This document shows, piece after piece, positions 27,378 to 28,153 of a stretch of DNA of 64,000 bases. Source of the DNA: a virus (lineage: Duplodnaviria > Caudoviricetes); IMG/VR virus record IMGVR_UViG_3300017913_001833, positions 1-64,000 of that record; one strand, 5' to 3'. The translations under genes were made by a program, and so were the position numbers. Numbering within the stretch: the stretch's first letter is position 1; each line of letters starts with the position of its first letter. The notes beneath the pieces are model-generated. The model did no database searches and had not been told where the DNA came from. It saw only the letters and a list, made by a program, of their open reading frames with translations.

Positions 27378-27613
27378 TGTTTAATCCCCTAGCTACAGAC
27401 TTTTATGATCTTAGTGATAAGCAATTAGAAGAAAGACTAGGTGAGCTTAACAGAAAATACTATATGACACAAAATCCACAAGTGCAGTCACAAATGGCTG
27501 TTCTTATTGAGCAGATGCGTGAAGAAGTGAGAACACGTAACGCTAGAGCAAAAGTGCAAGAAAATCCAGATCAAGACAATAAAGGACTTGACAATCTCAT
27601 CAACATCAGTTAA
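27377..27613 (+). CDS. Hypothetical protein
   Basis: TAATG-coupled ORF, helical. Confidence 0.7.
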   Translation: MFNPLATDFYDLSDKQLEERLGELNRKYYMTQNPQVQSQMAVLIEQMREEVRTRNARAKVQENPDQDNKGLDNLINIS

Positions 27614-27616
27614 TAT
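27588..27616 (+). promoter_or_regulatory. Sigma70-type promoter, probably giving a leaderless mRNA
   Basis: TTGACA-N17-TAATAT, ATG 6 nt downstream, no SD. Confidence 0.65.
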
Positions 27617-27622
27617 AGATGT

Positions 27623-28153
27623 ATGCTTATGAAAACAGACGACTTAGGTATCCCGCGATTCAGTAATCGTGACCTTGTAGATATGATATATTCAGGTCAT
27701 GTTGACAAGTGTCATGTTGTGCTATGTGACGAATCTGATGATGTAGATAGATTCAATCAAGCAATGACTGAACAAGGTTTACCCGAACTCCAGAAATATA
27801 TTCCATTAGACGTAGATCAAAAGACATTTGACGATGTATGTCAATCAGAATGGTTTATGCCACAGTCTTACAAAGATATAAATGTGTATGAATATGTACT
27901 TGGTAAGCTCAGTTCACCTGCAGAAGATGCAACTATGAAGCGTGTATGGGAAGAATTAGATGCGTTTGAAGAACGTGATATGCACAACTTATTAAGATAT
28001 ATGATCTATCTTGTGGACTTTATGCGTGAGAATGGTATAGTATGGGGTGTAGGTAGAGGATCTAGTGTAGCAAGTTATGTGCTATATTTGATCGGTGTAC
28101 ACCGTATTGATTCAATCCAATATGACCTGGATTGGAGAGAGTTCCTAAGATAA
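27623..28153 (+). CDS. DNA polymerase III alpha (DnaE) N-terminal palm fragment, stand-alone
   Basis: RVWEEL..GIVWGVGRGSSVASYVLYLIGVHRIDSIQYDLDWREFLR aligns with DnaE RL..[37 protein letters not shown]. Confidence 0.85.
   Translation: MLMKTDDLGIPRFSNRDLVDMIYSGHVDKCHVVLCDESDDVDRFNQAMTEQGLPELQKYIPLDVDQKTFDDVCQSEWFMPQSYKDINVYEYVLGKLSSPAEDATMKRVWEELDAFEERDMHNLLRYMIYLVDFMRENGIVWGVGRGSSVASYVLYLIGVHRIDSIQYDLDWREFLR

Follow-up and report, generated by a model that had tools for sequence, protein, structure and literature searches.

A candidate N-terminal chain of a split, miniaturised DNA polymerase III alpha in an uncultured marine jumbo phage

The DNA analysed here, referred to as the window, is a stretch of 64,000 nucleotides that represents positions 1 to 64,000 of the IMG/VR virus record IMGVR_UViG_3300017913_001833, a record of 146,380 bp with a CheckV completeness of 39%. 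The gene in question, which we call chain A, is an open reading frame (ORF) on the plus strand at 27623..28153 that encodes 176 residues and ends with a TAA stop; it is preceded by a promoter-like site and followed by a conserved gene of an unrelated family. We consider it very probable that chain A forms the N-terminal part of a C-family nucleotidyltransferase that is miniaturised and naturally split, as is typical of the T4-related group 2.2 jumbo phages, that is, the N-terminal unit of a split minimal DNA polymerase III (Pol III) alpha. An earlier reading of the window, made from the sequence only, had placed a stand-alone DnaE half at 27588-28153. The end of this span was right and its start was not, as the promoter-like site starts at position 27588 and the ORF itself at 27623.

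The chain A gene and its predicted fold

The Pfam family PF07733 (DNA_pol3_alpha) matches chain A with an E value of 8.3e-12 and 45.7 bits (cut-off 23.9), and residues 95-175 cover positions 14-94 of the 260 positions of the profile, and thus only the front of the domain. The chain A ORF is the sole PF07733 match in the source record. Chain A also falls into the family phrog_11127 (E 9.2e-45), whose profile is itself just 171 positions long. When the sequence was aligned with those of solved structures, residues 111-175 corresponded to residues 328-392 of Escherichia coli Pol III alpha, with GVGRGS placed under the E. coli GPGRGS and EFL under ERFL. The chain ends with DLDWREFLR, directly followed by the TAA codon, and the catalytic aspartates (DxD) and the KxD region are absent from it, as the ORF stops first. 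The PF07733 match, the structural alignment, and the position of the stop thus bear out the proposal that this ORF is a DnaE half that ends shortly before the PDxD motif. The sequence-only reading had also noted the absence of a PHP domain and of an intein at the break, and a Pfam scan of the ORF at E <= 1 indeed found neither a PHP domain nor an intein-type family.

An AlphaFold2 model of chain A, calculated on a 93-row alignment, reached a predicted local distance difference test (pLDDT) value of 94.2. Residues 65-176 (27815..28150, plus strand) of this model correspond to residues 270-393 of E. coli DnaE and represent the predicted N-terminal nucleotide-binding subdomain of a Pol-beta-like palm. 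VIA-align superimposed them on this E. coli region with Z 10.7-11.5, a root-mean-square deviation of 3.0-3.3 Å, and 103-109 aligned residues, on Mycobacterium tuberculosis DnaE1 304-413 with Z 13.4, 2.3 Å, and 102 aligned residues, and also on PolC 816-964. All VIA-align matches of the model were DnaE or PolC structures, and the next unrelated row had a Z of 2.3. Foldseek returned nothing at E <= 0.001 with the same model, though DnaE and PolC structures filled its first 12 rows. The GVGRGS loop, which is the triphosphate-binding GS motif of the nucleotidyltransferase fold, is formed by residues 142-147 (28046..28063, plus strand), and none of G142, G144, R145, G146, and S147 varies among 93 diverse homologues, in line with the earlier remark that the GRGS motif is intact. 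The first 64 residues (27623..27814, plus strand) form a small alpha/beta N-terminal extension that is modelled with pLDDT values of 87-97; no DnaE match covers it, and it lies outside the structural matches, which begin at residue 64-77.

Relatives of chain A are encoded on 505 stretches in IMG/VR, and 81 of these sequences were examined. Their length is nearly constant, with 176 residues in 78 and 177 residues in the remaining three, and all 81 end with EFLR, extended to EFLRD in the three longer forms. In 80 contigs that were assembled independently of each other, the stop codon is the same, which speaks against an assembly error. An exhaustive search of 50% representatives yielded 1149 chain A clusters at E <= 0.001, and among the 150 best listed clusters most have about 165-185 residues and nearly all end at the last residue of the query, so that the break point is fixed in the 80 contigs as well as in nearly all of these more distant clusters. 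In the metagenomic protein collection, chain A is represented by at least 7,997 clusters at 90% identity, Tara Oceans genes included, and the family is hence widespread and very common in the ocean. In the phage collection, 152 records have a region that matches chain A in tblastn. The jumbo myoviruses among them, with the PA5oct group, the Rak2/121Q/GAP32 group, XacN1, and Atu_ph07, have the short form, and all of these short-form matches extend to query residue 175 or 176; the family hence spans jumbo phages of Pseudomonas, enterobacteria, Xanthomonas, and Agrobacterium. Chain A is under purifying selection: the median ratio of non-synonymous to synonymous substitution rates (dN/dS), calculated pairwise by the Nei-Gojobori method for 52 distinct close relatives, is 0.109; it amounts to 0.104 in the first 95 residues and to 0.113 in residues 96-176. 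Evolution is therefore not neutral, which agrees with the argument of the sequence-only reading that the gene is no decaying pseudogene.

A second chain in related phages and its pairing with chain A

The sequence-only reading had postulated a second chain that starts near M-P-D-I-D-x-D-F and is encoded elsewhere in the genome, and such a chain, here called chain B, was found in relatives, far from chain A. In four complete isolate genomes, PF07733 matches the front part alone, and the fingers family PF17657 weakly matches ORFs of about 190 residues in XacN1 (E 1.6e-5) and Atu_ph07 (E 0.007). These ORFs begin with MDIDIDI in XacN1 and with MKNIPDIDIDF in Atu_ph07, and both carry the motifs K-F/I-D-F/M-L, IRPxK, and KSHxxxY. 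With the Atu_ph07 sequence as query, one copy of chain B was found in each of the four isolate genomes (E 1e-41 to 1e-54). In IMG/VR, 79 of 80 chain B loci have an ORF with D-I/V-D-I-D at most 30 residues after a Met, and most of these ORFs start with MPD[IV]DIDF. The residues D2, D4, D6, K62, D64, R131, P132, K161, and H164 are invariant in 73 chain B sequences, and the second ORF thus also keeps the later KxDxL-type motif that had been predicted for it, with the third aspartate in KxD, together with finger motifs. The chain B profile is collinear with M. tuberculosis DnaE1, with MPDIDIDF at 413-424, the region from KMDFL to RPG at 568-663, and NKSHAAGY at 773-788. The family corresponds to phrog_11778 (E 6e-65). 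Among 48,161 representative chains, a chain B model (pLDDT 93.2) matched only DnaE and PolC, with Z 6.5-9.6 over 181-189 of its 190 residues; the next row had a Z of 4.0. The matched E. coli DnaE region is 401-828, and as only 190 chain B residues span it, the thumb and the larger part of the fingers have been lost. Homologues of chain B with 33% identity (E 1e-26) are also encoded by the Alishewanella phages OQ508956.1 and OQ508957.1, whose size of 141 kb is well under the 200-kb limit of jumbo phages, and the split enzyme is therefore not confined to jumbo genomes.

Chain B was not found in the source record by protein search, and a hidden Markov model built from four sequences gave a best E of 1.7 in six frames. 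PF17657 had no match in the record, blastn with chain B loci had none either, and the genes that neighbour chain B in the complete relative IMGVR_UViG_3300044701_000569 (G003; 357,559 bp) are absent from it. This absence is uninformative, because the record is only 39% complete and is collinear with a region of G003 that does not contain chain B: the ORFs of the source record follow G003 in inverted orientation from 276.3 kb down to 124.5 kb, and the G003 chain B gene lies at about 36.6-37.2 kb, some 207 kb from the G003 chain A gene. G003 chain A is 73% identical to chain A of the window and stands in the same gene order, and the family B DNA polymerases (PolB) of the two phages share 80% identity. 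Judged by this synteny, the chain B gene of the window phage should lie about 87 kb past the right end of the 146-kb record. The synteny map also shows that the stretch at about 77-95 kb of the source record has almost no counterpart in G003. The lineage of the window phage is uncultured, marine, and very abundant, and its complete relative G003 has a genome of about 357 kb. The phage collection contains no close isolate of this lineage; the best isolate match there is 45% identical to window chain A, and a nucleotide search with the locus gave none.

As to the co-occurrence of the two chains, both are present in all four complete isolate genomes and in six of seven long IMG/VR records (G002 and G003, both 100% complete, and G004, G005, G011, and G012). 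Shorter IMG/VR fragments carry one chain or the other, as is expected for genes that lie more than 100 kb apart. Chain B was detected in 96 records of the phage collection, and the genus tallies for chain B and the short chain A are equal for Escherichia (34/34), Erwinia (8/8), Salmonella (8/8), and Xanthomonas (4/4). The additional chain A matches, which come from Bacillus, Streptomyces, and other genera without a chain B match, are probably full-length DnaE proteins. Among proteins of 309-2000 residues, no fusion of chains A and B was found, an absence that is weak evidence. Two candidates for such a fusion turned out to be something else: P0275 has an unrelated extension in front of chain A, and P0272 (666 residues, from one 5.6-kb ENA contig) is chain A joined to the C-terminus of a ribonucleotide reductase. 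In P0272, a complete chain A is followed in frame by the second part, directly after the usual chain A end (EEFLE), and the protein probably arose as a chimera in the assembly or through a deletion that led to a fusion. Three further matches to long proteins carry unrelated bacterial domains.

The two-chain modelling that had been suggested for such a pair was done with chain A of the window and chain B of G003, both supplied as alignments, in three runs and with three controls. The heterodimer obtained an ipSAE of 0.91 in all three runs, and the best of the three controls obtained 0.00; the same mark was met by 58 of 80 solved complexes and by 2 of 110 mismatched pairs, in a calibration that is rough, as own alignments were used. 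At least 97% of the contacts were common to the three runs, and the partner was modelled with a pLDDT of at least 91. The cut ends adjoin each other in the model, as the C-terminus of chain A (residues 173-176) and the N-terminus of chain B (residues 1-8) are part of the interface. In addition, residues 2-33 of the N-terminal extension of chain A belong to the interface, and the chain A stretch 70-78 is paired with two stretches of chain B, 36-39 and 58-60. The model supports binding of the two chains without being a proof of it.

A miniaturised C-family enzyme in two parts and the alternatives to it

A split phage protein of this kind has already been described from sequence data. Iyer, Anantharaman, Krishnan, Burroughs, and Aravind described a "split minimal DNA polymerase III alpha" in group 2.2 jumbo phages (2021, Viruses 13:63; PMC7824862), which in their view represents the catalytic module of Pol III in a minimal version. 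It accompanies a family B polymerase, and a role in one-strand synthesis or repair was proposed (PMC7824862). Atu_ph07, which is a group 2.2 phage according to these authors (PMC7824862), carries both chains that we describe here, and phrog_11127 (chain A) and phrog_11778 (its partner) are the families of the split minimal Pol III alpha. The arrangement is the same in both cases: a stand-alone NTP-binding palm part of about 170 residues, a catalytic and template-binding part that is encoded in a distant gene in the relatives of the window phage, and a position beside PolB and an RFC-like clamp loader without other Pol III domains. Nothing essential differs, except that the partner gene of the window phage is expected outside the recovered fragment. 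The concept is thus not new, as it was published in 2021 (PMC7824862), and the gene in the window adds a member from an abundant marine lineage. What can be added here is that the break falls exactly between the E. coli-equivalent positions 393 and 401, that chain B has MPDIDIDF as its conserved start, that chain A is under purifying selection and has a 64-residue addition, that the two chains can be modelled as a heterodimer, and where the partner gene is placed relative to the record.

Compared with the single-chain enzymes of solved structure, namely DnaE of E. coli (2HNH, 5FKU), M. tuberculosis (5LEW), and Thermus aquaticus (2HPI), and PolC (3F2B), the phage form has the same fold and the same motifs, as the GRGS loop, the aspartates of DxD and KxD, and the finger motifs RPG and KSH are common to both. 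It differs from them in that it consists of two chains with together about 366 residues, whereas DnaE and PolC are single chains of about 1160 residues, and in that the PHP, thumb, clamp-binding, OB, and tau-binding regions are missing and the fingers are much reduced. On the other hand, the phage chain A has the additional 64-residue N-terminal element. A search for PHP (PF02811) in five complete relative genomes found none, and the control search matched all 14 reference genomes. The two-chain core is far smaller than any solved C-family polymerase that we compared.

In cyanobacteria, a C-family polymerase is encoded in two distant genes, DnaE-n and DnaE-c, with a split intein. There, protein trans-splicing joins the halves, at another site than the phage break, into a full-size DnaE. 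In contrast to this system, an ordinary stop codon terminates chain A, whose ORF matched no intein-type family, and Met-Pro-Asp forms the start of chain B; the phage halves must stay non-covalent. An unsplit counterpart exists as well: a PHP-less mini-DnaE of 563 residues (positions 91-1782 of locus L183, minus strand, on fragment G009) has the GS loop, PDVDIDF, KVD, and RP in one chain and matches phrog_405 (E 2.5e-69). Unlike chain A, this mini-DnaE is a single chain of three times the length that keeps an insert of thumb length, and the two are only distantly related (E 4.8e-4 over residues 123-175). G009 and G006 (locus L184, with an open frame of 576 residues) are fragments of marine jumbo phages with a completeness of 16-18% that encode chain B, and the mini-DnaE lies a few kb away from it. 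It may be that the mini-DnaE is a paralogue, or that it stands, in evolution, between the full DnaE and the split form.

For the split enzyme, the data suggest the following model. Chain A would supply the helical half of a Pol-beta-like palm, in which the GxGRGS loop is expected to bind the triphosphate of the incoming nucleotide, and chain B, with its about 190 residues, would contribute the beta-sheet with the three metal-binding aspartates and much reduced fingers. The cut would fall into the loop that corresponds to E. coli DnaE 394-400, with chain A stopping at the equivalent of 393 and chain B starting at that of 401, and the two chains would join non-covalently, without an intein, and thereby rebuild one active site. 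The resulting mini enzyme, devoid of PHP, thumb, clamp-binding, and OB regions, would act beside the PolB of the phage. The sequence-only reading had already proposed a non-covalent two-chain Pol III-like enzyme, and chain B, its co-occurrence with chain A, the fixed break, and the dN/dS values support this. The observations that we can add up in its favor are homology, the fixed break, co-occurrence, purifying selection, and a confident heterodimer model. The dimer probably forms in the cell, where it would be a template-directed DNA polymerase with an auxiliary role, be it in repair, gap filling, or one-strand synthesis; the sequence-only reading had thought of priming, repair, or the handling of modified DNA. 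If it is active, such a mini-Pol III would reveal how little of DnaE is required for catalysis, and it would be a natural case of an active site that is split over two non-covalently joined chains. It also raises the question why giant phages that use PolB retain a second, bacterial-type polymerase.

Several points weigh against this interpretation. The pairing with chain B is, for the window phage, deduced by homology only, and the partner in the complex prediction was the chain B of a relative and not the cognate one. Halves of a split gene can pass the complex test through their likeness to solved DnaE structures, and the complex score is therefore weak evidence of binding. One long IMG/VR record, G001 (280 kb, 79% complete), has chain B without chain A. 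Neither a thumb nor a clamp-binding motif nor a proofreading domain was found, and because of this, processive synthesis by the dimer alone is doubtful. In the literature searched, there were no biochemical or genetic data on the split enzyme beyond the sequence paper of 2021.

The deletions also provide the basis for the alternative that survives best, although we regard it as unlikely: the two chains may share an active site, and the enzyme could be another nucleotidyltransferase, such as a terminal transferase, an enzyme that makes primers, or one that handles modified nucleotides. The loss of the thumb and of most of the fingers would fit this, as would the absence of PHP, clamp-binding, and OB regions and the fact that replication is already covered by a complete PolB and a clamp loader. 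The finger segments of DnaE contact the incoming deoxynucleoside triphosphate and the template, however, and it is in these segments, collinear with M. tuberculosis DnaE1, that the invariant RPxK and KxHxxxY of chain B are found; moreover, there was no evidence for another substrate. Far less probable is a non-catalytic function of chain A alone, for example as a decoy or inhibitor of the host Pol III holoenzyme or as an accessory of the clamp loader, with chain B being irrelevant. Chain A does have its own conserved promoter-like site of the early type and is always encoded a few genes upstream of the clamp loader, and chain B is distant and not co-transcribed, but a decoy would not need the invariant GxGRGS nucleotide-binding loop, both chains have the same phyletic distribution, and they are confidently modelled as complementary halves with adjoining cut ends. 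Finally, a decaying remnant of a captured dnaE or a stop caused by an assembly error, as might be suspected from the only about 80 residues that match the Pfam domain and from the missing catalytic residues, is excluded by the dN/dS of 0.109, by the identical length and stop in the 80 contigs, and by the wide family, with its many metagenomic clusters and its occurrence in jumbo phages of four host groups.

The promoter-like site and the neighbouring genes

The sequence-only reading had assigned to the chain A gene a promoter of its own with the sequence TTGACA-N17-TAATAT, and this sigma-70-type promoter-like site is present at 27588..27616 on the plus strand, with 10 of 12 matches. Its -10 hexamer overlaps the TAA stop of an upstream ORF of 78 residues and ends 6 nucleotides before the chain A ATG. 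All 37 distinct upstream sequences of close relatives have TTGAC[AG], a spacer of exactly 17 nucleotides, and TAnnnT. The synonymous positions in the -35 hexamer are conserved in these relatives while adjacent codons vary, a conservation that is partly confounded, as the -35 hexamer sits in coding sequence (L-D-N). Promoter-like sites are not significantly enriched in the region (18, as compared with 14.7 +/- 3.6 in shuffles). No Shine-Dalgarno sequence was found before the chain A ATG, and an early, leaderless or near-leaderless chain A mRNA appears plausible from this arrangement. A second in-frame ATG at codon 3 of chain A is also conserved (M-L-M).

Downstream, the chain A stop is separated by 23 nucleotides, which contain an AAGGAG, from the ATG of a gene at 28177..28485 (plus strand) that encodes a conserved protein of 102 residues of the family phrog_14844 (E 3.3e-18), and this is the unrelated gene with its own ribosome-binding site that had been noted from the sequence. 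The string AIDMDML in this protein made it a candidate for the missing continuation of the polymerase, which was rejected, as phrog_14844 is an unrelated conserved family. The gene is located directly 3' of chain A in all 76 eligible IMG/VR loci and also in isolates, and it was found in 86 phage records. A T4 gp44-like clamp-loader subunit is encoded at 30083..30997 (plus strand), an annotation that is borrowed from syntenic isolates; the block order chain A, phrog_14844, GroES-like gene, and clamp loader is also annotated in Paride, GAP32, Atu_ph07, and XacN1. The full PolB mentioned by the sequence-only reading lies at 54325..56994 (plus strand), comprises 889 residues (PF00136, E 1.8e-30), and is likely the main replicase.

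Chain B also has a conserved neighbour, since in 157 of 160 loci a convergent gene of the family phrog_11637 overlaps with its 3' end (for example at 3563-3931 of locus L173, minus strand), with occurrences in 89 phage records; an atlas look-up with the 122-residue neighbour of chain B gave no usable match. Both phrog_14844 and phrog_11637 share the phyletic distribution of the mini-Pol III. It is conceivable, and in our view rather improbable, that the two proteins replace the thumb and clamp-binding parts and that a four-part accessory polymerase for repair or the copying of modified DNA results. The linkage may as well be part of a conserved core gene order of group 2.2 phages and have no functional meaning.

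Further neighbours of chain A are found in the stretches 28485-29278 and 30994-31886 of the window. They include a weakly matching GroES/Cpn10-like gene (phrog_931, 'head morphogenesis', E 1.8e-10), a MazG-type pyrophosphohydrolase (PF03819, E 7.7e-8), and, recognized by eye, candidate ORFs for a 2-oxoglutarate/Fe(II) (2OG-Fe(II)) oxygenase-like protein and for a 2x[4Fe-4S] ferredoxin-like protein.

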